IMG/VR virus record: IMGVR_UViG_3300019776_000564
Location: 44,019 to 108,018 of that record
Reading direction: 5' to 3' (one strand)
From: a virus
DNA: 64,000 nt
Positions 21,846 to 45,989 of the stretch are shown piece after piece; position 1 is the stretch's first letter; each line of letters starts with the position of its first letter. A program made the position numbers and the translations under genes. The notes below the pieces were generated by a model. It ran no database searches, was not told the DNA's origin, and saw nothing but the letters and a program-made list of their open reading frames with translations.

Positions 21846-22583
21846 ATGACAATTCAGGAAGAAATTCAAAAGCTTGAACCATCTGCGGTAATCGAACTGT
21901 TTGAGCTGGATATGTCGAAGCATGGCTTGGTAAGCCAATACTTCCATGCAGGTACAAATAACCTCAACTCTGGCGTAGTGTGGAAAGGCATTACCTATAT
22001 GCCTTTGCCAATTGAAGCAGACGGGTTTGAGGTGAGTGCGGCCGGCAAAGTCTTGCCTAGACCTAGACTGAGGCTTGCCAACGTACAAGGCTTATTTTCG
22101 GCAGAGGTCGACGCATACGACGATCTAATTGGCTGCAAGATTATCCGTAGAAGAACTTTTACCAGATTTCTTGACGCTGTTAACTTTGAAGGCGGCGTAA
22201 ACCCTAGCGCAGATCCTGGACAGCAATACCCGGAAGAGATCTGGTTTGTTGAACAGAAAATATCGGAGAACAAGTATCTCATTGAGTGGGAACTTGCATC
22301 CGTATTTGACCTTCAGGGTGTAATGCTGCCTCGCAGACAGATGGTTCGTAACGGCTGCCCTTTCGGCTATCGAATCTGGAACCCTCTAACGGGTTCATTT
22401 GACTATTCTGGTGCTGGTGATTGTGGATATTCAGGTAGCGCCTATTTCGACATCAACGACAACCCGGTAGCAGATCCTTCTAAAGATCGGTGCAGTAAGC
22501 ATTACGGCGCCTGCGAGAAGAGACATCCTGCTCCAGAAAACGTGCCATTCGGAGGATTCCCAGGTGCAGTCAATCTCCAGTAA
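21846..22583 (+). CDS. minor tail protein L
   Basis: IELFELD, PIEADGFE, RRRTF..FLDAVNF, Fe-S cysteines, PFGGFPG. Confidence 0.92.
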   Translation: MTIQEEIQKLEPSAVIELFELDMSKHGLVSQYFHAGTNNLNSGVVWKGITYMPLPIEADGFEVSAAGKVLPRPRLRLANVQGLFSAEVDAYDDLIGCKIIRRRTFTRFLDAVNFEGGVNPSADPGQQYPEEIWFVEQKISENKYLIEWELASVFDLQGVMLPRRQMVRNGCPFGYRIWNPLTGSFDYSGAGDCGYSGSAYFDINDNPVADPSKDRCSKHYGACEKRHPAPENVPFGGFPGAVNLQ

Positions 22584-23319
22584 GCTTTACGATTTCATCT
22601 GCCAAGAGGCCAAAAAGAATTTTCCCAACGAGTCATGCGGATTAATTCTGAAGAAGGGCAAGAAGCAGAGAATTGTGGCTGTACCAAACGTTTCTTTGCA
22701 GCCAAATAATCAGTTCCTCATGGCAAGATCTGACGTTGAGGCTGCGGCCAACGGCGAAGAAATTCTTTGCGTATGGCATACACACTGCAACATTCCACCT
22801 AAACCCTCTGAAGCTGATGTAGCGGGCTGTGAAGCGACTTCTGTCCCCTGGGTTATCGTATCAGTCTATAAAGACGAGGACGGCCCATACAGCTTCTCAG
22901 ATATGTTCACGCTCGAACCTTCGGGTGAGTTGATCGACTATATCGGGCGCCCTTATGTGTTCGGGTCGCTAGACTGTTGGACGCTGATTCGTGACTACTA
23001 CAAGCGAGAGTACGGAGTAAGTCTTGGCGAGTACCCAAGAATCCATGAGTTCTGGAAAAGCCCAACGAGCAATTTCTTTGGTGATAAGAGCAACTGGGAA
23101 TCTGAAGGTCTTTACTCTATTCAAGAGTCCGAGCTTAAAGAAGGCGACTTGATCTTTTTCTCAACTGACGGCTCTGGTAATCCAAACCATGCCGCAGTCT
23201 ATATAGGTGGCGACCTGATCCTTCATCACGTAACGGACAGGCTTTCAAAGCGTGACGTTTACTACGGGTATTGGGAAAAGAACGCTGTAGCATTTCTGAG
23301 GTGTAAGCATGTCAGTTGA
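22564..23319 (+). CDS. tail assembly protein K (JAB/MPN + NlpC/P60)
   Basis: PNESCG, intact JAMM motif HTH..PSEAD; DCW...H...H NlpC/P60. Confidence 0.92.
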   Translation: MQSISSKLYDFICQEAKKNFPNESCGLILKKGKKQRIVAVPNVSLQPNNQFLMARSDVEAAANGEEILCVWHTHCNIPPKPSEADVAGCEATSVPWVIVSVYKDEDGPYSFSDMFTLEPSGELIDYIGRPYVFGSLDCWTLIRDYYKREYGVSLGEYPRIHEFWKSPTSNFFGDKSNWESEGLYSIQESELKEGDLIFFSTDGSGNPNHAAVYIGGDLILHHVTDRLSKRDVYYGYWEKNAVAFLRCKHVS

Positions 23320-23923
23320 GATCGCACTGGAAGGCATTCTTGGTAAGAAATTTGGCAAGCTTTGGAATCTGCATGTTGATTCGCCGTCTGAAGCTCTTAG
23401 CCTCATCGATGCAAACCAACCCGGCATCATTTCTTGGATTAGAAAAAACGAGGATATTTACAGTAAGTACCGCGTCACCTGCGTATACGAAAATGGTGTG
23501 TCGGAGGATCTATCCGAAGACAACTACCTACTTGAAAGAGGAAGCCTGAAGAGAATTGTCTTCGAGGTAGTAATCGAAGGTGCCGGTGGTAACGGCGTAT
23601 TGCAGACGGTCATTGGCGTTGCACTTATCGTGGCCGGCGTAATTATCAACGCAGGAACTGGCGGAGCAGGCTCTCCGCTTGGTACAGCGATGATCTCTGC
23701 CGGTATCGGTATGATGATCGGCGGCGTTATTCAGATGCTCACGCCTCAGCCGAAAATTGACCGAGATGAGTCCAGTAGCGGTGGTGGTAAGAAAGCATCC
23801 AGTTATTTTGATGGCGCATCGAATACTACCAATCAGGGCAATCCAGTGCCTCTCTGTTATGGTAATGTTCTCGCAGGCTCGCAAGCCGTATCCGTAAACC
23901 TCGTTATCAACCAGGTGCTTTAA
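23309..23923 (+). CDS. tail assembly protein I (ubiquitin-like N-domain)
   Basis: LGKKFG..., IEGAGG, Gly-rich hydrophobic segment, QGNPVPLCYG. Confidence 0.9.
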   Translation: MSVEIALEGILGKKFGKLWNLHVDSPSEALSLIDANQPGIISWIRKNEDIYSKYRVTCVYENGVSEDLSEDNYLLERGSLKRIVFEVVIEGAGGNGVLQTVIGVALIVAGVIINAGTGGAGSPLGTAMISAGIGMMIGGVIQMLTPQPKIDRDESSSGGGKKASSYFDGASNTTNQGNPVPLCYGNVLAGSQAVSVNLVINQVL

Positions 23924-23925
23924 AT

Positions 23926-26900
23926 ATGAGCGAAGAATTATCAACCATCGCCGGTGCTGGCGGTGGCGGTGGGTGTTTCAGAAAGGGCACTCAAGTACAG
24001 CTTGAGAATGGCAAAACTATTGCCATTGAGCTTCTCAAGGTTGGTGATGAGGTTCTTGCTTTCGACGAGCAGGGCAAGATTCACGTATCTAAGGTAACGA
24101 AGGTTCACTTCCATGAGAAGCCAGAGCCTATCCTTCGCGTGAAGTTCTGGAAAGGTGAGACGCACATCACGCCAAACCATTGGGTTCTGAACCAATACGA
24201 CGCCTTTGCGGAGATCAGTCGGCTCACATACCACGATGCTCTGGTTGACGGTATGGGTCATCTTAGACCAATCACACTTGCCGAGTACGTGGGTAATGAG
24301 CCTGTATGGAACCTTACCGTTGAGCCTCACCATACCTTTATTGCTGACGGCATCCGCGTTCACAACGGCGGTCATAGAGACAGATTTCCAACCGTAGCGG
24401 GCGCTGGTGGTGGCGGTGGCGGCAAAAGTGAAGGTCGCCAAGCAATCGAAGACCCGGATAGTCTTCAATCAAAGGCTCTTATCAGCATTGTTGACGTTAT
24501 CGGCGAAGGTGAGATTGGCGGTCTTGAGGATTCTGCAAAGAGCATTCTTCTCAACGGCACGCCATTGATGAACGCAAACGGAACGATGAACTTCAAGAAC
24601 GTTTCTTGGACGTTCCGTAACGGCACACAAAATCAGTTGCCGATGAAGAACTACGTGGATGCAGCTACGCCTAGATCCATTGGCGTTCAGGTTAAATACG
24701 GCGCACCGTCGGTATTCTCCGTTACGAACCCGGATGTTGATGAAGTTAACGTAGTAGTCACCATGCCATCCCTGTTTAAGCAGGACAAATCTACAGGCGA
24801 CATTCACGGGACAAGCGTTCAGTATCAGTTTGCTGTAAAGGCTGATAACGGAGCATTCGTTAACTACGGCCCTCCCGTAACTGTTACCGGCAAAACATCC
24901 GGTAAGTATCAGCGCGCCACAAAAATCGTTCTGCCAAAACCAGCAGGTCGCTGGGATATCAGAATGACAAGGATTACGCCAGACGCTCCCGATTCGTCTA
25001 TCGCGAACGTCACTCACCTCGACAGCATTGTTGAGGTCGTAAAGTCTCGCCTCAATTACCCAAACACCGCTATCGTTGGCCTGACAATTGACTCGTCTCA
25101 GTTCTCTCAGGTTCCAACCAGATCGTACAAGATCAAAGGGATCAAGATTAAGGTTCCAAGCAACTACGATCCTGTTACTCGGGTGTACAGCGGTATCTGG
25201 GATGGCAGCTTTAAGAACGCCGTTTCCAGCAACCCGGCGTGGATCATGTATGACCTGCTAACGTCGAAACGCTACGGTCTTGGTGAATACATTTCCCAAA
25301 ATCAGGTAAGCAAGGCTTCTCTGTACTCCATCGGCAGATACTGTGATGAGATGGTGCCTGGCGAAGACGGTGTTGATGAGCCTCGTTTTCAGATCAACAC
25401 TCAGATCCAATCTCAGCAAGAGGCTTACAAGCTCCTTTCTGACATCAGCTCCGCATTCAGAGGTATGTCCTACTGGAGCGGCGGCGTAGTAGGTTTTACT
25501 CAGGACTGCCCTCAAGATCCTTCGATGGTCTTCAGCCCATCTAACGTCATCGATGGCCTTTTCAACTATGTTGGTGCATCCAGAAAGGATCGTCACAGTG
25601 TTGTGATGGTTACTTGGAATGATCCAAAACAGGACTATAAACAGGCTGTAGAGTACGTCGAAAGCCCAGAACTTATCTCTCAGCTTGGCGTTAGATCGGT
25701 CGAGACCGTTGCGTTTGGATGCACAAGCAGAACGCAAGCGCGAAGAGTCGGTCTTTGGATTCTTTACACCGAAAGGTACGAGTCCAGCGTCGTAAACTTC
25801 AGCGTCGGCCCAGAAGCATCCATGTTGATGCCGGGTGAAGTCGCTCAGATTAACGACCCAAGCAAAGCCGGTCGTAGAATGGCTGGCAGACTTGCTTCCT
25901 GCACCTTGAACTCTGCCACTTTGGATTCTGAGGTAGAGATCAAAGACGCGGAAGCGAATATCTCCATTCGTATGCCAGATGGCTCTTTTGAGGATAGAAC
26001 TGTACTTGAAGGGCCGGGTAAATACACGTCGCTCACTTGGACTTCGCCGCTACCATCTGAGCCGGTTGCAAATGCGATCTTTATCGTTTCTGAGGCAAAC
26101 CTTAAACCGCTTTTGGTGAGAATCGTCAGCGTCGCTGAAAACTACGGCGAAGGTAAAGGCACTTACTCCATCACTGCGATTGAGCACAACCCCGGAAAGT
26201 ATGCTGAGATCGAGCGTGACGCCCCTCACGAAATTCGGTACGTCTCTGATATGCAACTTGTGCCAGAGCCACCAACTGGACTTGTTACGGTTGATTCGAT
26301 CTTCAAATCTGGCGCGTCAATCCTCTCAAGACTGTCTGTTTCGTGGGATAGCGACGACAAGTCCATTGCATCATGGACGGTTCGCATTCGCTCTCAAAAT
26401 GATAGTAACTGGGAGGCGCGCGATAACATCACCATCCCATCGGTCGACTTCGACAATGTTACAGATGGTGAGAGCTACATCGTTGAGGTTTACAGCGTTA
26501 ACCCTCTTGGTAACAGGTCTTCTACGCCGGCTGTTACCACTCATACAGTGCTTGGCAAAAAACTGCCTCCGTCTGACGTGACTGGATTCGAGTCGCGAGC
26601 AGCCGGCAACCGTATGCTGTTTACCTGGGATAACGCAAAGGACGTTGACCTTAAAGAGTATGAGGTTCGCAGAGATGATATCGGCTGGGGAGACGAAGAC
26701 CCTGCTGTTCTGGTATATCGAGGCGCCGCAAACTCCTTCTCCGTTGAAGAGACTGATGGCGCGGCAACAGACAGCACCCTGTACATCAAGGCTGTGGATA
26801 CAAGCGGAAACTTCTCTGAGAACGCCAGCTTGGTCAACGTCACGTTCGTTAGACCTACGACGCCAGTTATTCGTCTGAAAATCTCCGATACATCCACTGT

Positions 26901-29900
26901 ATCGGCAACAGCATCTCTTGAGTGGAACCCATCCACTTCTGACTTCGCCGTTTCTCAGTACGAAGTGACCGTGAGCAAGCCGGGTGTTGCGTCTGAGGTT
27001 TTCACTCAATCCAATACCTCTTTCCAGCTTGATATGGATTTTGTAGGTAGCGCGACGATTTCGGTTGTAGCAGTTGATGCTCACGGCAAGAGATCCAATA
27101 GCGGTTTCAAGACTGTAGAGTCGTTAATGCCGGCCGCACCTACGTCCTTCCAGTTTCTGCCAGCAGAGGTGGGCACGCTGAAGCTCGTATGGGCTGAAGC
27201 GAACAGAACTACGCTAGCAGTAGCGGGCTATGAAGTTCGTGACGTAGACGCTAATTGGGGAGCTTTTGGGGCTATTCATAAGGGCTCTGTGCCCATGTGT
27301 ACCCTCAACAACATCAGTGTTGGAGATAACACCTTCTATGTCAGATCTTTTGACACCGAAGGCAGATACTCCTCGTCGATGGTCGCCACCTACACCTACA
27401 CAGGCCCTTCAATGGTTGGCGTGATTGGTCATTCGGTGAGTGACAGTGCCGTTACCTCAGCGAGCGTTCGTTTTAGCTGGTTTGAAGCAACCAGTCCATT
27501 TGGTGTGGATCGGTATGTCGCAACTCTGACAAAGCCGGATGTAATCGAGCCTGTTGTTTACACAACCAGATCCAATGAATGGGTAACGAACATTGACTGG
27601 ATCGGTGATGCGACGATAGAAATTGCCGCTTACGACAATGCGGGAAATATCACTTCTGCGCCTATCACCAAGGTTGTATCTCGCGCTCGACCAAACCCAA
27701 TTACAGCGGTCGACACGAACCTCGTTAGCTACGCGAACGGTAAGGTCACTCTTTCGTTTGAGTGGTCTGATGTTGGGCTTGAAACAACTCTGCCAATTGC
27801 AGGTTTTGAGATCAGAAAGACCGATTCTAATTTCGGTAAATCCGGTTTCGCTTACAGAGGTGCGAGCGCAGTAGCTCAGATCGCCGGCATCCCAACAAAT
27901 GCTGACGTTAACTACTACGTCAGACCATACGATACTGAGGGAACGTACTCGGATACCTCGTTTAACATTTTCGTAGGTAGAAACATTGGCCCTGAACCTG
28001 TTACCGACATCACTTCTGTGCCATACGGTCAACTGCTTCGCATCAAATGGAAAGCTCCATTGACTACTGGTGGTGAGGTTCGCTACGAGCTTCGCTGGAA
28101 TGACGCTAACTGGGGCGTTGATGACGCTAACCGAATCTACTACGGGTCTAACCTGTATGCAGACGTTCGTCTTGCGAATCTTGGCTCAAACAAGGTTTAC
28201 ATTCGCGTTCTGGATCAGTTCTTCCAGTGGTCTGTGACTACTAACCATGAGTACATTTACAGCATTGCCGATCCGGTTGGATTCACGTATCAGTTTGGTA
28301 CAGCCACTTCACCTCAGATCATTCTGAAGTGGAACGCGGCCGCTCCAGCTTTTGGCTTGTCAGAGTACGTTCTGACTAGCGACGTTGATTCGATCACCTT
28401 GAAGGCTACAACAAAGACTCTGCCTGCAACCTGGGACGGATCGAGAGCCTTTACGCTCAAGGTAAAAGACAACAATGGCAATCTGTCCAACCCGGTAACT
28501 ATTACTGCCGACATTGCGCCGCCTGTAAACTCTACCGTCATGCCGACGTACAAGTTGAGTGCGGTCAAAAACAACCTGGCTACTATCGTTATCAACTGGA
28601 CTGATGCCACAAAGGGCGCTTTACCTATCAAGGGTTATGAGGTAAGAGATACTGACAGCGGTTGGGGCACCGGTGGCGCTATTTATGATGGTGTTCAATC
28701 TGCCTGCACGATCACAAACGTCCCTATGAACACCACCAGTACGTGGTATCTGAGAGCGTATGACGTATCGAAAAACTACGCCGCAACATCCTACGTAATT
28801 GAGAACGACGGACTCACACCGCCAAGTCAATTGACCGGGCTTTACGGTATTGCAGAGGGCACTGGGTATCGTCTCAATTGGGATCAAGCTACAGACATCG
28901 ATGTCGTTGAATATGAGGTTAGAACCTCTGACTCGAATTGGGGTCTTGCTGGTCAGGTTTATCGCGGTATTCAAGCTACGTGCTTGATCGCCAAGCCGCC
29001 AGTTGCGGGCACAACCTACTACCTTCGCGCTAAAGACGCCTATGGTCAGAGAAGTATTGCGACGACGCTGGTGTTCACTTACCCAACTCCAGATCCGGTG
29101 AGTGATATTTTCTTCAACTTCGTTGATGCGGCAGGCACCATGTTGATTGACTGGCCGACTGCAACACCGGACTTCCGTCTGAAGAACTACAAGCTCAGCT
29201 ATATGGAAGACGCGACGCTTAAGACTGTGACTACCGCTGCAAGCTCCGTTACCATCAAGCCAAACTGGTTTGGTGACAGAGAGTACAAGGTTGTCGTTGT
29301 CGATACATATGGAGTTGAGTCCAGTGCCACCGCAAGAACTGTAACGGTTGCAAAACCTGGATCAGTAACCTCGCCGGCAGCAAGTGTTGTATCCATCAAG
29401 GCCGGCAACCAGACAATCAAAATTGACTGGCCTGATGCTGCAAAAGGCTCTTTCAACATTGCTGGTTATGAGATCAGAACTGCGGATTCTGGGTGGGGAA
29501 CTGCTGGCTATAAATACAAGGGCGCCGCTTCTCAAGCAACCTTGTCCAGCGTGAGCACTACTGCGGCAACAACTTGGTATCTCAAAGCGTATGACGGGTT
29601 GGGCAACTACAGCCAAACCGCAACCGCACTGACGTACAACCCTGTTCTGCCAAACGAAGTGACATCGGTTACAGTCAAGCGAGTAAAGGCTGTTCTTGAG
29701 ATCTCCAGCGTAACTACCGTCAAGCCTGCTGACTTTAGCTGCGTTCAGTACCGAATCGCCAAAGTCATGCCGGGGTCTACTTCTGGCGATGATACTGGGA
29801 TCGATGAGGGCGTAATCTCTACTGGTGATTTCTGGAACGACCCGGATTGCTTGATCTATAACGGAACGGAAACGTCAGATAAGATCAGGGTTAACATCAG

Positions 29901-30027
29901 CGACTTCCCTAAACCATTGTTCTCTAAGACAGGTATCACCTACCGAATCGCAGCGAGAGTGATGGACAAAGGAGGTAACTTTAGCCCTAACTCTGCGATG
30001 ACCTCGATCGTAGTAGCCGCTCTGTAA
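23926..30027 (+). CDS. tail tip / host-specificity protein J with N-terminal Hint domain and expanded FN3 array
   Basis: gpJ core (EDPDSLQS, GEGEIGGL, YSGIWDGSFK, SNPAW); Hint domain aa 17-147; repeated FN3-like units. Confidence 0.92.
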   Translation: MSEELSTIAGAGGGGGCFRKGTQVQLENGKTIAIELLKVGDEVLAFDEQGKIHVSKVTKVHFHEKPEPILRVKFWKGETHITPNHWVLNQYDAFAEISRLTYHDALVDGMGHLRPITLAEYVGNEPVWNLTVEPHHTFIADGIRVHNGGHRDRFPTVAGAGGGGGGKSEGRQAIEDPDSLQSKALISIVDVIGEGEIGGLEDSAKSILLNGTPLMNANGTMNFKNVSWTFRNGTQNQLPMKNYVDAATPRSIGVQVKYGAPSVFSVTNPDVDEVNVVVTMPSLFKQDKSTGDIHGTSVQYQFAVKADNGAFVNYGPPVTVTGKTSGKYQRATKIVLPKPAGRWDIRMTRITPDAPDSSIANVTHLDSIVEVVKSRLNYPNTAIVGLTIDSSQFSQVPTRSYKIKGIKIKVPSNYDPVTRVYSGIWDGSFKNAVSSNPAWIMYDLLTSKRYGLGEYISQNQVSKASLYSIGRYCDEMVPGEDGVDEPRFQINTQIQSQQEAYKLLSDISSAFRGMSYWSGGVVGFTQDCPQDPSMVFSPSNVIDGLFNYVGASRKDRHSVVMVTWNDPKQDYKQAVEYVESPELISQLGVRSVETVAFGCTSRTQARRVGLWILYTERYESSVVNFSVGPEASMLMPGEVAQINDPSKAGRRMAGRLASCTLNSATLDSEVEIKDAEANISIRMPDGSFEDRTVLEGPGKYTSLTWTSPLPSEPVANAIFIVSEANLKPLLVRIVSVAENYGEGKGTYSITAIEHNPGKYAEIERDAPHEIRYVSDMQLVPEPPTGLVTVDSIFKSGASILSRLSVSWDSDDKSIASWTVRIRSQNDSNWEARDNITIPSVDFDNVTDGESYIVEVYSVNPLGNRSSTPAVTTHTVLGKKLPPSDVTGFESRAAGNRMLFTWDNAKDVDLKEYEVRRDDIGWGDEDPAVLVYRGAANSFSVEETDGAATDSTLYIKAVDTSGNFSENASLVNVTFVRPTTPVIRLKISDTSTVSATASLEWNPSTSDFAVSQYEVTVSKPGVASEVFTQSNTSFQLDMDFVGSATISVVAVDAHGKRSNSGFKTVESLMPAAPTSFQFLPAEVGTLKLVWAEANRTTLAVAGYEVRDVDANWGAFGAIHKGSVPMCTLNNISVGDNTFYVRSFDTEGRYSSSMVATYTYTGPSMVGVIGHSVSDSAVTSASVRFSWFEATSPFGVDRYVATLTKPDVIEPVVYTTRSNEWVTNIDWIGDATIEIAAYDNAGNITSAPITKVVSRARPNPITAVDTNLVSYANGKVTLSFEWSDVGLETTLPIAGFEIRKTDSNFGKSGFAYRGASAVAQIAGIPTNADVNYYVRPYDTEGTYSDTSFNIFVGRNIGPEPVTDITSVPYGQLLRIKWKAPLTTGGEVRYELRWNDANWGVDDANRIYYGSNLYADVRLANLGSNKVYIRVLDQFFQWSVTTNHEYIYSIADPVGFTYQFGTATSPQIILKWNAAAPAFGLSEYVLTSDVDSITLKATTKTLPATWDGSRAFTLKVKDNNGNLSNPVTITADIAPPVNSTVMPTYKLSAVKNNLATIVINWTDATKGALPIKGYEVRDTDSGWGTGGAIYDGVQSACTITNVPMNTTSTWYLRAYDVSKNYAATSYVIENDGLTPPSQLTGLYGIAEGTGYRLNWDQATDIDVVEYEVRTSDSNWGLAGQVYRGIQATCLIAKPPVAGTTYYLRAKDAYGQRSIATTLVFTYPTPDPVSDIFFNFVDAAGTMLIDWPTATPDFRLKNYKLSYMEDATLKTVTTAASSVTIKPNWFGDREYKVVVVDTYGVESSATARTVTVAKPGSVTSPAASVVSIKAGNQTIKIDWPDAAKGSFNIAGYEIRTADSGWGTAGYKYKGAASQATLSSVSTTAATTWYLKAYDGLGNYSQTATALTYNPVLPNEVTSVTVKRVKAVLEISSVTTVKPADFSCVQYRIAKVMPGSTSGDDTGIDEGVISTGDFWNDPDCLIYNGTETSDKIRVNISDFPKPLFSKTGITYRIAARVMDKGGNFSPNSAMTSIVVAAL
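23974..24366 (+). other. Hint (intein-like/BIL) autoprocessing domain within gpJ
   Basis: Block A CFRKGTQV, block B TPNH, block F VWNLTVEPHHTF, block G VHN; +1 residue is Gly. Confidence 0.88.
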
Positions 30028-43910: not shown

Positions 43911-45989
43911 ATGGATCGCATTCAACGCATTGCCATTATGAGAGAGGCGATTACCAAAATCGCCCAGATCCTCTCTGACGGCAAAGTTCTCGTAACTCAG
44001 TCAGGTGTTAAGGCGTTCGTTAAGTACGACGAGCGCACTATGAAAGCAACTCGCGTCAACTTGCCAATGATCCCGGATGACGCAAGTGACGAACTGATTG
44101 AAGCTGTTCAGGGCTTTCTTGACAGCGAGATCTCCAAAGTCCTCTATGCGGACGGCAAGTCCAACCTGCGTGCTGCGCACGAAAACATGGCCTCGCTGTA
44201 CAACCCGCTTGAGTCCTTCTTTTGCGAGAAGGAAATGGTCAAGAACTTCCAGGGTTCTCGCCATAACCTCGCAAACATGCACCAGACTTTCGTGGACAAG
44301 TTCATCACGCCACGACTGAAAGAAGCTCTCGCTAATGGCGCAGAAGAGCAAGAGCTTTTCCAAGTTCTCGCAGTTCCCGCATTGCGAGCGTGGGGCGGCC
44401 AAAAGTTCTTCCAAGACTACATGAGCGATAAGTGGTCTCTGATCGCCGGCATTCAGAAGCAGCTTGATCCGATTGCCAAGAAAATGCAGACCATGACCAA
44501 AGCGTCTGACTGCTATGACATGGCGAAGCAGATTCGCAATGTCGTAATGGGTGAGCCGCCTGAAGGTGATGGTGACAACCCGTTCGGTGATGAAGATCCG
44601 AGCAAGAAAGGTGGCGGTGGCGGTAAAGGTAGCAGCGGTAAAGGTGGCAAGGGTGGTAAAGGCGCCCCTCCACCAAAAGCTAACAAGGGCAAAGGTGCAG
44701 GTGAACTAGGCGACGAAGAAGAGTCTGAAGAAGACGAGGACGAAGAGTCTTCGGGTGGCCCGGGCGAGAAGTCTGAAGAAGACGCAGACGCAGAAGACGG
44801 CTCCGGCGTCGAAGATGATGACGACCTGGAAGAAGACGAGGAAGGTGAAGACGGCGAAAAGCCCGACCCTCGTAAAGAAGACGCCCAATCCGGTGCCGAC
44901 GGTCAGTCCAATCAGCAAGAGCGTGAGAAAGGTACTGAAGATACCGAGTCCGCTCAAGCCGATTACGGCGGCGCGAACTTCATGAAGGACTTCGACTGGG
45001 ACAAGGTTCAGGACATCGGCACTGAATTTGGTCAGTACGTTACCGATCTGTGCTCGACAGAAATGGATAACGAGGACTACACGGTCTTTACTCGCGAGTG
45101 GGATCAGCTTGAGCCTCCAAAAATCCCATCGAGCTACAGTCCGAAGTGGCTCGATGACCTCGAAAAGTCAATCGCTGGTATGGTTGGCCCTGTTGCGCGT
45201 CAGCTTGAGCGTGCTTTTGCCGCACGTAACAAGTCTCTGACTCAGCAAGGTCTTCGTAAAGGCAAGCTGTCTTCCAACAATCTGTATCGTCTGACCGCTG
45301 GTGACGATCACATTTACAAGAACAAGATTGAGCACAAGACCCGAGAAATTGCTGTGTCTCTGGTCATCGACTGCTCCGGCTCTATGGGTGGTTCCAAGAT
45401 CCATACTGCAATGTGCTCAGCGTGGGTGCTTGCTGATGTTCTCGGTCGACTCGGCGTCGATTGCGAGATCATGGGCTTCACTACTGGCGACCTGTACGCT
45501 CAGCGGTCTAAAGACCTGTACAAAGAAATGTGCGACGCAAGTAATGCCGGCCGTGAGTTCGACCGCTGTGAGCCGTTGCGACTTCCTCTCTTCAAGAGCT
45601 TCCAAGAGAAGTTCTCGATTGAGGTCAAGAAGCGAATGGCGAGTTACGCTCACGTTCAGTCTTCTATGGCGAGCAACATTGACGGCGAGTCCGTTCAATA
45701 CGCCTATGAGTCTCTGTGTCGCCATGCAAACAAGGGTAAGCGTAAAGGCAAGATGATGATCGTCTTCAGCGACGGTCAACCTGCAGGCGGCGTAGACAGT
45801 CGTAAGCTGAACGCCCACTTGAAGGCTGTGGTGAATCGAATCGAGAAGGACGGCACTAACATTGTTGGTGTAGGCATTATGTCCAACTCTGTCCAGCATT
45901 TTTACCGCAAGAACGTCAAGCTGGATAACGTTGCTGAGCTGCCGGGCATCGTCCTCAAGCAACTCCGGGACGCTCTGCTTTCCGCTTAA
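43911..45989 (+). CDS. cobT: CobT-like vWA-domain protein
   Basis: Gly/acidic low-complexity linker, MIDAS DCSGS, NIDGE, FSDGQP; paired with a CobS-like ATPase. Confidence 0.85.
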   Translation: MDRIQRIAIMREAITKIAQILSDGKVLVTQSGVKAFVKYDERTMKATRVNLPMIPDDASDELIEAVQGFLDSEISKVLYADGKSNLRAAHENMASLYNPLESFFCEKEMVKNFQGSRHNLANMHQTFVDKFITPRLKEALANGAEEQELFQVLAVPALRAWGGQKFFQDYMSDKWSLIAGIQKQLDPIAKKMQTMTKASDCYDMAKQIRNVVMGEPPEGDGDNPFGDEDPSKKGGGGGKGSSGKGGKGGKGAPPPKANKGKGAGELGDEEESEEDEDEESSGGPGEKSEEDADAEDGSGVEDDDDLEEDEEGEDGEKPDPRKEDAQSGADGQSNQQEREKGTEDTESAQADYGGANFMKDFDWDKVQDIGTEFGQYVTDLCSTEMDNEDYTVFTREWDQLEPPKIPSSYSPKWLDDLEKSIAGMVGPVARQLERAFAARNKSLTQQGLRKGKLSSNNLYRLTAGDDHIYKNKIEHKTREIAVSLVIDCSGSMGGSKIHTAMCSAWVLADVLGRLGVDCEIMGFTTGDLYAQRSKDLYKEMCDASNAGREFDRCEPLRLPLFKSFQEKFSIEVKKRMASYAHVQSSMASNIDGESVQYAYESLCRHANKGKRKGKMMIVFSDGQPAGGVDSRKLNAHLKAVVNRIEKDGTNIVGVGIMSNSVQHFYRKNVKLDNVAELPGIVLKQLRDALLSA

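Follow-up and report, generated by a model that had tools for sequence, protein, structure and literature searches.

In the 64,000-nucleotide stretch of viral DNA analysed here (the window; positions 44,019 to 108,018 of the IMG/VR record IMGVR_UViG_3300019776_000564), the gene for gpJ, the central tail fibre or tip protein of 2033 aa (23926..30027; all features given here lie on the plus strand), is predicted to start with a small Hint domain of the BIL type, which has its catalytic residues intact and is set in a run of glycines. We consider it probable, at roughly 0.6, that this domain is a self-excising cassette which, much like an intein, resides in Gly-run linkers. As far as sequence can tell, self-processing is its most likely activity, given the invariant Cys1, TxxH and terminal His-Asn, the glycines on either side and its close relation to type-A BIL domains. 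An initial annotation of the same stretch, made from the letters alone, had placed a BIL-type Hint domain without a nucleophile at +1 in this position; its coordinates for the domain, the flanks and a related motif in the neighbouring tail protein gpI proved exact on recheck, and the assignment is confirmed by Pfam, by the predicted fold and by the +1 residues across the family.

The domain is framed by two copies of a short glycine-rich motif, as had been annotated. The leader or N-extein (aa 1-16, 23926..23973) has the same form as the N-termini of J proteins without a Hint domain and ends with the first copy, TIAGAGGGGG (23944-23973). The Hint/BIL domain (aa 17-147, 23974..24366), assigned by Pfam, profile search of the PDB, AlphaFold2 and Foldseek, begins with Cys17 (codon at 23974-23976), carries T82-P-N-H85 as block B (24169-24180) and ends with H146-N147 (24361-24366). 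It is followed by the linker GGHRDRFP (+1 to +8, with G148 and G149 as +1 and +2; 24367..24390) and by the second motif copy, TVAGAGGGGGG (24391..24423), after which the canonical J start KSEGRQAIEDPDSLQS is reached; this second copy reads T(I/V)AGAGGGGG, as the leader copy does. From aa 155 the protein matches phrog_31 (1.9e-275), and its Pfam matches are FNIII-A_GpJ and Phage-tail_3.

On aa 1-200 of gpJ the Pfam model Hint (PF01079) passes its cut-off of 29.7 bits with a score of 33.4; on the full-length protein it reaches 29.1 bits, slightly under that cut-off. Vint, Hint_2, PT-HINT and Intein_splicing match aa 1-200 more weakly, PT-HINT (PF07591) with 21.3 bits and thus below its cut-off of 27.7, which relatives exceed. 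An AlphaFold2 model of the N-terminus, built on 19 orthologues, gives a predicted local distance difference test score (pLDDT) above 90 throughout residues 17-147 and leaves the flanks disordered. In the profile search of the PDB the C. thermocellum BIL domain 2lwy ranks first (5e-16) and Tetrahymena BIL2 second, while the top Foldseek matches of the model are BIL2/BUBL (6y75, E 3e-11), the Ssp DnaB intein and again 2lwy, with a TM score of 0.87 and a root-mean-square deviation of 1.6 Å for the latter; the Foldseek probability is 1.00 for more than 40 inteins, BIL and Hedgehog Hint domains.

The window domain, at 131 aa, contains no insert and no endonuclease. Of the features by which a canonical intein is recognised it has the terminal His-Asn, but neither Cys, Ser or Thr at +1 nor a homing endonuclease. 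With canonical mini-inteins (Ssp DnaB, Mtu RecA, gp41-1) it shares the fold and the N- and C-terminal blocks; it differs from them in the missing +1 nucleophile, in its low-complexity Gly flanks and in not occupying a conserved active-site region of a replication protein. The combination that characterises type-A BIL domains, intein-like N- and C-terminal blocks and His-Asn without a C-flanking nucleophile, is found in full. Like the C. thermocellum type-A BIL domain (2lwy) it has Cys1, TxxH, the terminal His-Asn, no Cys, Ser or Thr at +1 and a mini size, but it belongs to a phage tail-tip protein, occupies an extreme N-terminal site in a Gly run with strictly Gly flanks and is inherited with J at 72% identity among relatives, and its activity is here a predicted one. 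The BIL2 domain of Tetrahymena thermophila BUBL1 (6y75/6tmm), although the top Foldseek match, is eukaryotic and shares only about 22% sequence identity. In BUBL a Gly-ended ubiquitin-like domain immediately precedes the BIL cysteine, an order found again in relatives that carry the Hint domain in gpI, whereas in the window gpJ the N-flank is the 16-aa leader. The pretoxin HINT model (PF07591) is the best Pfam model for the wider Hint clade, which comprises tandem arrays and the gpI-borne domains. In polymorphic toxins, pretoxin HINT domains are believed to free the part of the protein that follows them; in the window the score is under the cut-off and the payload is the whole of J, not a toxin. 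Finally, the peptidase S74 intramolecular chaperone domains of tail fibres and spikes are likewise part of a fibre precursor and remove themselves in maturation, but they have another fold, use Ser-Lys chemistry and are located C-terminally rather than N-terminally.

In order to place gpJ among its relatives, we searched with its residues 1-200. A word-indexed search returned 612 clusters of J-sized proteins, the best 120 of which are 45-84% identical over the N-terminus and have an identical layout, and an exhaustive search of 1.84 billion representatives returned 2857 proteins at E ≤0.001. Among 158 long proteins with an N-terminal Hint domain, the domain measures 131 aa in 112, the -1 residue is Gly in 154 and the +2 residue is Gly in 157. 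At +1 there are 147 Gly, five Lys, four Ala, one Gln and one Tyr; Cys, Ser and Thr, whose presence in homologues the initial annotation had named as the mark of an ordinary decayed intein, do not occur. The leaders of these proteins, 7-37 aa long, vary in sequence apart from the motif, and across the main clade the linker behind the domain is conserved as GG[HYF]RxRxP. Invariant in 30 diverse J proteins are G16, C17, F18, T82, H85, N129, V145, H146, N147 and G149; the catalytic residues are also invariant in the 83 close J proteins described below, and among 153 J-type N-termini with an NHW block no full-length protein lacks Cys1.

The named sources of Hint-bearing J proteins include Herbaspirillum, Oxalobacter, Methylomicrobium and betaproteobacterial bins, with P0073 from a Herbaspirillum huttiense prophage and P0098 from Oxalobacter among the proteins, and many carriers lie on contigs of 100-110 kb, as does the window gene in its 108-kb source phage. 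None of the 50,697 deposited GenBank phage genomes searched encodes a J with this Hint domain, the closest sequences there being helicase inteins of Vibrio phages at about 30% identity; a nucleotide search of GenBank phages gave no match, and a scan of species-representative genomes gave only seven loci, all in metagenome bins. A literature search found no description of Hint or BIL autoprocessing in siphophage tip proteins. The cassette is the majority state in a large clade of environmental phages of roughly 100 kb, yet absent from the deposited phages searched.

To assess conservation without the bias of Hint-based sampling, we chose 120 J proteins on the hub region alone. Of these, 83 carry the Hint domain. 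Mean identity among the 83 is 72% in the Hint domain compared to 59% in the first 520 hub residues; in 99% of the pairs the hub is the less conserved of the two. Within the 131-aa domain, conservation of 90% or higher is seen at 62 positions. In pairs with unsaturated synonymous divergence, the ratio of nonsynonymous to synonymous divergence (dN/dS) of the domain is about 0.08-0.12 while its dS equals that of the J hub; in two example pairs the dN/dS values are 0.082/0.976 in the Hint domain versus 0.118/1.046 in the hub, and 0.098/1.162 versus 0.231/1.167. Purifying selection, the absence of which the initial annotation had considered damaging to a functional reading, is hence evident. Together with the invariant catalytic residues it rules out a decayed intein, and the equal dS rules out a recent horizontal sweep as the source of the high identity.

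On the hub tree the distribution of the domain takes 18 parsimony changes among the 120 J proteins, as compared to a mean of 31.7 after shuffling, and well-supported branches of the FastTree phylogeny force at least 12 gains or losses. Hint-less J proteins are nested within Hint-bearing clades, where some retain one motif and others are leaderless. By this phylogenetic pattern the domain is an inherited but dispensable cassette.

The Hint-less J proteins at IMG/VR loci also clarify what the flanks are. They start with Met, 2-20 variable residues and two hydrophobic residues, followed by G-[AS]-[GK]-G-G, a Gly run, K-G-G-G and R.P.E.PDSL.S. Because Hint-less proteins start in this way, we take leader plus GAGG to be the native N-terminus of J. 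This N-terminus, a leader, the motif hxGxGG (h being hydrophobic) and a Gly run, is newly recognised here from sequence comparison, and the Hint domain evidently sits inside its Gly run. In distant Hint-bearing J proteins the domain passes directly into J as HN/GGGGKGG (the slash marks the domain boundary) with no second motif, whereas main-clade proteins have the linker and a second copy behind the domain; the Hint-less sister P0395 has one motif, and P0074 has two copies plus the domain. The GAGG duplication, whose co-occurrence with Gly at +1 the initial annotation had proposed to test, is therefore not universal. Translation from an internal start before the second motif is ruled out, as no in-frame start codon is present.

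Where both copies exist, they resemble each other within a protein. Non-Gly identities between the two copies, uncorrected for phylogeny, average 2.05 within proteins versus 1.31 ± 0.06 between proteins, the within-protein value being reached in 0 of 300 shuffles, and rare variants (GSK, GRK, GAK, GGK, GHG and, twice, GSGGSSSS) are paired in both copies. J proteins with rare variants include P0145, P0148, P0171, P0131, P0117, P0082 and P0094. Third codon positions are equal in only 65 of 133 matched codons, and in the window 6 of 30 bases differ between copies 1 and 2, which leaves homogenisation at the DNA level unsupported. The likeness would therefore be held at the peptide level or stem from old conversion events. 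This co-variation of the J copies at the level of peptide rather than DNA, as read from the alignments, is newly recognised, as is the co-variation of the gpI motif with the J motif described below. A group of close J proteins (P0380, P0387, P0392, P0396-P0398, P0401, P0404-P0406, P0408) has neither leader, motif nor Gly run and starts at the hub, with MNEAKDSLQS and similar sequences; these form one well-supported clade. Their existence implies that the leader motif of J is dispensable in some phages.

The mechanism that we infer from the sequence and from solved relatives would proceed after translation, beginning with an N-S acyl shift of Cys17 at the Gly16-Cys17 bond. Asn147 would then cyclise and cut the chain between Asn147 and Gly148. 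Given Gly residues at -1, +1 and +2, two outcomes are conceivable for the thioester: resolution by the freed alpha-amine of Gly148, a ligation without a side-chain nucleophile and the route ascribed to the C. thermocellum BIL domain, or hydrolysis. Type-A BIL domains are reportedly also able to ligate without such a nucleophile. In the case of hydrolysis mature J would start at Gly148, and linker and second motif would restore the native N-terminus of short peptide, hxGxGG and Gly run. Either way the 131-aa domain would be gone by the time the trimeric J enters the narrow tip structure. Its removal seems necessary because gpI and the end of gpH already occupy the tip lumen of phage lambda (PMC10721106, PMC11101478). 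Self-cleavage at either end is attributed to type-A BIL domains in PMC7765530, with reference to Amitai 2003 and Dassa 2004. The cassette would persist in the manner of a mini-intein, since a copy unable to excise would spoil J, and it can also occupy the equivalent Gly run of gpI. Its dispensability in J and its fit to the gpI Gly run are the reasons why we rank intein-like residency first.

Several observations weigh against excision as the whole explanation. Conservation across the entire domain (the 62 strongly conserved positions) exceeds what catalysis needs and hints at a partner or a further role. Excision accounts neither for the retention of the leader motif and its co-variation with copy 2, seen at the peptide level only, nor for the co-variation between the gpI and J motifs. 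The absence of a homing endonuclease, in combination with the repeated gains and losses and the continued presence in most of the hub-chosen J proteins, could point to a selective benefit, and the data fit ligation as well as double cleavage. On account of the conservation, the co-varying leader motif and the gpI-gpJ co-variation we also weigh a shared cleavage site for the peptidase gpK, a maturation timer and a BUBL-like transfer.

The first of these, which we regard as possible if tentative and which is compatible with self-excision, holds that hxG[AS][GK]GG is a recognition or cleavage site for the JAB domain of gpK in both gpI and gpJ. The cut in gpI would free the ubiquitin-like domain and the cut in gpJ, which is plausible, would remove everything upstream, copy 2 being kept behind the Hint domain so that J is still trimmed or recognised. 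In the window, gpK (22564..23319) combines a JAB/MPN+ metallopeptidase with an NlpC/P60 cysteine peptidase (Pfam Prok-JAB 3.5e-16, NLPC_P60 1.3e-20). Its JAMM/MPN+ site E ... HxH ... S..D is complete, as initially annotated, and E23, H72, H74, S82 and D85, along with C138, H209 and H221, are invariant in 19 orthologues. The tail assembly or plug protein gpI (23309..23923; phrog_32, 9e-54) is homologous to lambda gpI and consists of a beta-grasp-like N-terminal domain (aa 1-88), the motif, two hydrophobic helices and a C-terminal plug region. Its motif IEGAGG (23573..23590) lies right behind the last strand of the N-terminal domain. In an AlphaFold2 model with pLDDT above 90 over residues 1-88, this last strand spans residues 80-88 and the helices residues 96-116 and 123-144; strands and helices of the N-terminal domain follow the beta-grasp order, and IEGAGG forms the loop before the two helices. 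Fold matches to SAMP1 and MoaD are weak (E >0.01), and the beta-grasp assignment draws on the model together with the description of lambda gpI by Iyer et al. 2006 (PMC1779556). G91 of gpI is invariant in 41 orthologues.

Hint-less phages, too, have the motif both where the N-terminal domain of gpI ends and in the N-terminus of J, which bears out the annotated sharing of the motif between the two proteins. When the gpI motif is taken as P-h-h-x-G-[AS]-[GK], its third residue goes with that of the J leader: Lys in both in 16 cases, Lys in gpI and Gly in J in eight, Gly in gpI and Lys in J in two, and Gly in both in 35 (odds ratio 35, p 4e-7, uncorrected for phylogeny). From these comparisons the link between the gpI and gpJ motifs appears real and extends beyond Hint-bearing phages; the papers examined do not describe it. 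The pairing of rare variants in the two J copies (GSK with GSK, GRK with GRK, GAK with GAK, GHG with GHG, GSGGSSSS twice), held apparently at the peptide level, speaks for a common site as well, as do the invariant JAMM residues of gpK. Moreover, Iyer et al. 2006 predicted that the JAB domain of gpK cuts gpI at the glycine which ends its ubiquitin-like domain (PMC1779556), and they also describe gpI as sometimes fused to J. The lambda motif RVAGAKSGG aligns with IEGAGG of the window, and Ge & Wang resolved lambda gpI in the closed state from residue 101 (PMC11101478). Counted by us along the translated lambda gene, this residue is the second Gly of AGAKSGG (residues 94-101). Such a start of the model is consistent with loss of the ubiquitin-like domain by a cut there, without proving it.

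On the other hand, JAB enzymes usually recognise the ubiquitin-like fold, and J offers a short peptide only. Several close J proteins of the MNEAKDSLQS type lack leader and motif although the gpI of their relatives retains its motif, the I-J co-variation is uncorrected for phylogeny, and old gene conversion could be another source of the likeness between the J copies. Cleavage of J by K has never been reported. The lambda tip set agrees with that of the window in gene order, domains and the motif at the end of the gpI N-terminal domain, but lambda J has no Hint domain and starts with only MGKGSSKG. The related idea that the Hint domain substitutes for the gpK JAB domain is rejected, since JAB is intact in Hint-J phages as well as in a phage with the Hint domain in gpI.

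We think it rather unlikely, though worth stating, that the domain is an adaptive pro-domain that keeps the N-terminus of J blocked until J trimerises or gpI, gpK and gpL dock, possibly in response to zinc or redox state, akin to self-cleaving fibre chaperone domains. Such a timer would account for conservation of the whole domain above that of the hub and for its majority status in the clade (83 of 120); BIL2 is reported to be zinc-switched (PMC8616854), and S74 chaperone domains provide a precedent for self-cleavage on fibres (PMC7824862). Repeated loss of the domain without visible compensation argues against it, as does its absence from all deposited phage genomes searched, and nothing connects cleavage to assembly.

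That the domain acts as in BUBL is improbable. In this reading a thioester made at the terminal Gly of the N-flank would let the domain hand that flank over, with no need for ATP, to a lysine or N-terminus of another tail protein; in J the flank is the leader, and in phages with the Hint domain in gpI it is the entire ubiquitin-like domain. Tetrahymena BIL2, the top structural match and second by sequence, reportedly links its ubiquitin-like N-flank to substrates by an isopeptide bond, via a thioester and without ATP (PMC8616854), so that the thioester chemistry invoked in the initial annotation has a precedent. The strict conservation of Gly at -1 would agree with it. So would a layout newly recognised by sequence comparison, in which the same Hint domain apparently stands right behind the ubiquitin-like domain of gpI, in BUBL-like order: about 27 gpI clusters of 434-455 aa read Ubl...PV(I/L)EGAGGGG.../C-Hint-HN/GGGGKGG...helices (Ubl, the ubiquitin-like domain), and their Hint-less sisters have PVIEGAGGGGGGGGGKGGGG at that position. 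In J, however, the N-flank is the short, variable leader without a fold, and its attachment seems pointless; the strictly kept terminal His-Asn means that the C-flank is released as well, the same residues are explained by hydrolysis or ligation, no acceptor is known, and the gpI form is absent from the window. For the same reason, the shortness and variability of the leader, its use as a 16-aa transferred tag, as once proposed, is unlikely: it corresponds to the native N-terminus of Hint-less J proteins, and some close J proteins do without leader and motif altogether.

The gpI-Hint proteins comprise P0211, P0253-P0278 and the one at locus L097:5001-6317; there, the start of the following gene, which codes for at least 1665 aa, shows no recognisable likeness to J. 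At another locus (L012:2635-3929) tandem gpI paralogues of 207 and 229 aa lie upstream of a Hint-bearing J with an unusually long post-Hint linker.

A Hint domain that stays uncleaved, as a structural or ejected part of J or as a decoy for ubiquitin-like conjugation by host Bil systems, is very improbable. Bil systems do target the central tail fibre (bioRxiv 10.1101/2023.09.04.556158), but the text consulted names no site within it; the invariant C1, TxxH and HN favour chemistry over a passive domain, and three 131-aa domains are hard to fit into a lumen filled by gpI and gpH (PMC10721106).

The role of the ubiquitin-like gpI and the JAB protein gpK in tail assembly is a twenty-year-old question, and the shared, co-varying hxGxGG of gpI and gpJ together with the fusions of ubiquitin-like domain and Hint in gpI make it directly testable. 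It is a long shot that the hxGxGG and Gly-run sites of gpI and gpJ are one tail-tip processing and activation site at which the Hint domain would make a Gly thioester for transfer to a tail protein, as in the BUBL loci of ciliates; if true, phage morphogenesis would include an ATP-independent, E1/E2-free ubiquitin-like conjugation step alongside the JAB domain of gpK. Independently of its biological role, a natural compact Hint domain with Gly flanks, predicted to remove itself without a side-chain nucleophile at +1, would be of interest for protein ligation tools.

The window has the lambda-type order of tip genes, tape measure, M, L, K (JAB and NlpC/P60), I and J, with K, I and J assigned by Pfam and PHROG, and M and L by position only. 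A -1 frameshift fusion of gpI and gpJ with the Hint domain as separator is ruled out, as in the loci examined the J frame is open for only 2-20 codons upstream of its ATG, and no slippery site was seen in the window sequence. Towards its C-terminus gpJ carries a long series of fibronectin-III-like repeats (aa ~790-2033, window 26300-30027) with a recurring signature of the type W..A......GYEVR; owing to this 1200-residue series its length exceeds that of most relatives by about 700 aa.

Related Hint domains, belonging to one clade with that of gpJ, also occur in multiple copies and in other contexts. Four J proteins (P0102, P0124, P0138, P0192) have two tandem N-terminal Hint domains with a Gly run before each, as in IHGAGGGG/C ... 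HN/AGLGAGSIHGAGGGG/C. In nine proteins predicted to be secreted (P0135, P0141, P0142, P0157, P0166, P0182, P0222, P0226, P0237) three to five tandem domains are joined only by HN/KGG(G)/C; behind them lie a stretch rich in Gly and Ser, a membrane segment and a Tim44-like domain. P0165 has about 8-10 consecutive domains; to our knowledge, such multi-Hint arrays have not been described. Six further proteins (P0189, P0195, P0162, P0202, P0179, P0205) carry the domain internally or at the C-terminus; their sole PHROG matches are to the Hint part (phrog_21587 and, faintly, intein-bearing helicase, terminase and tape-measure families), and several end in HN/GGGGK.

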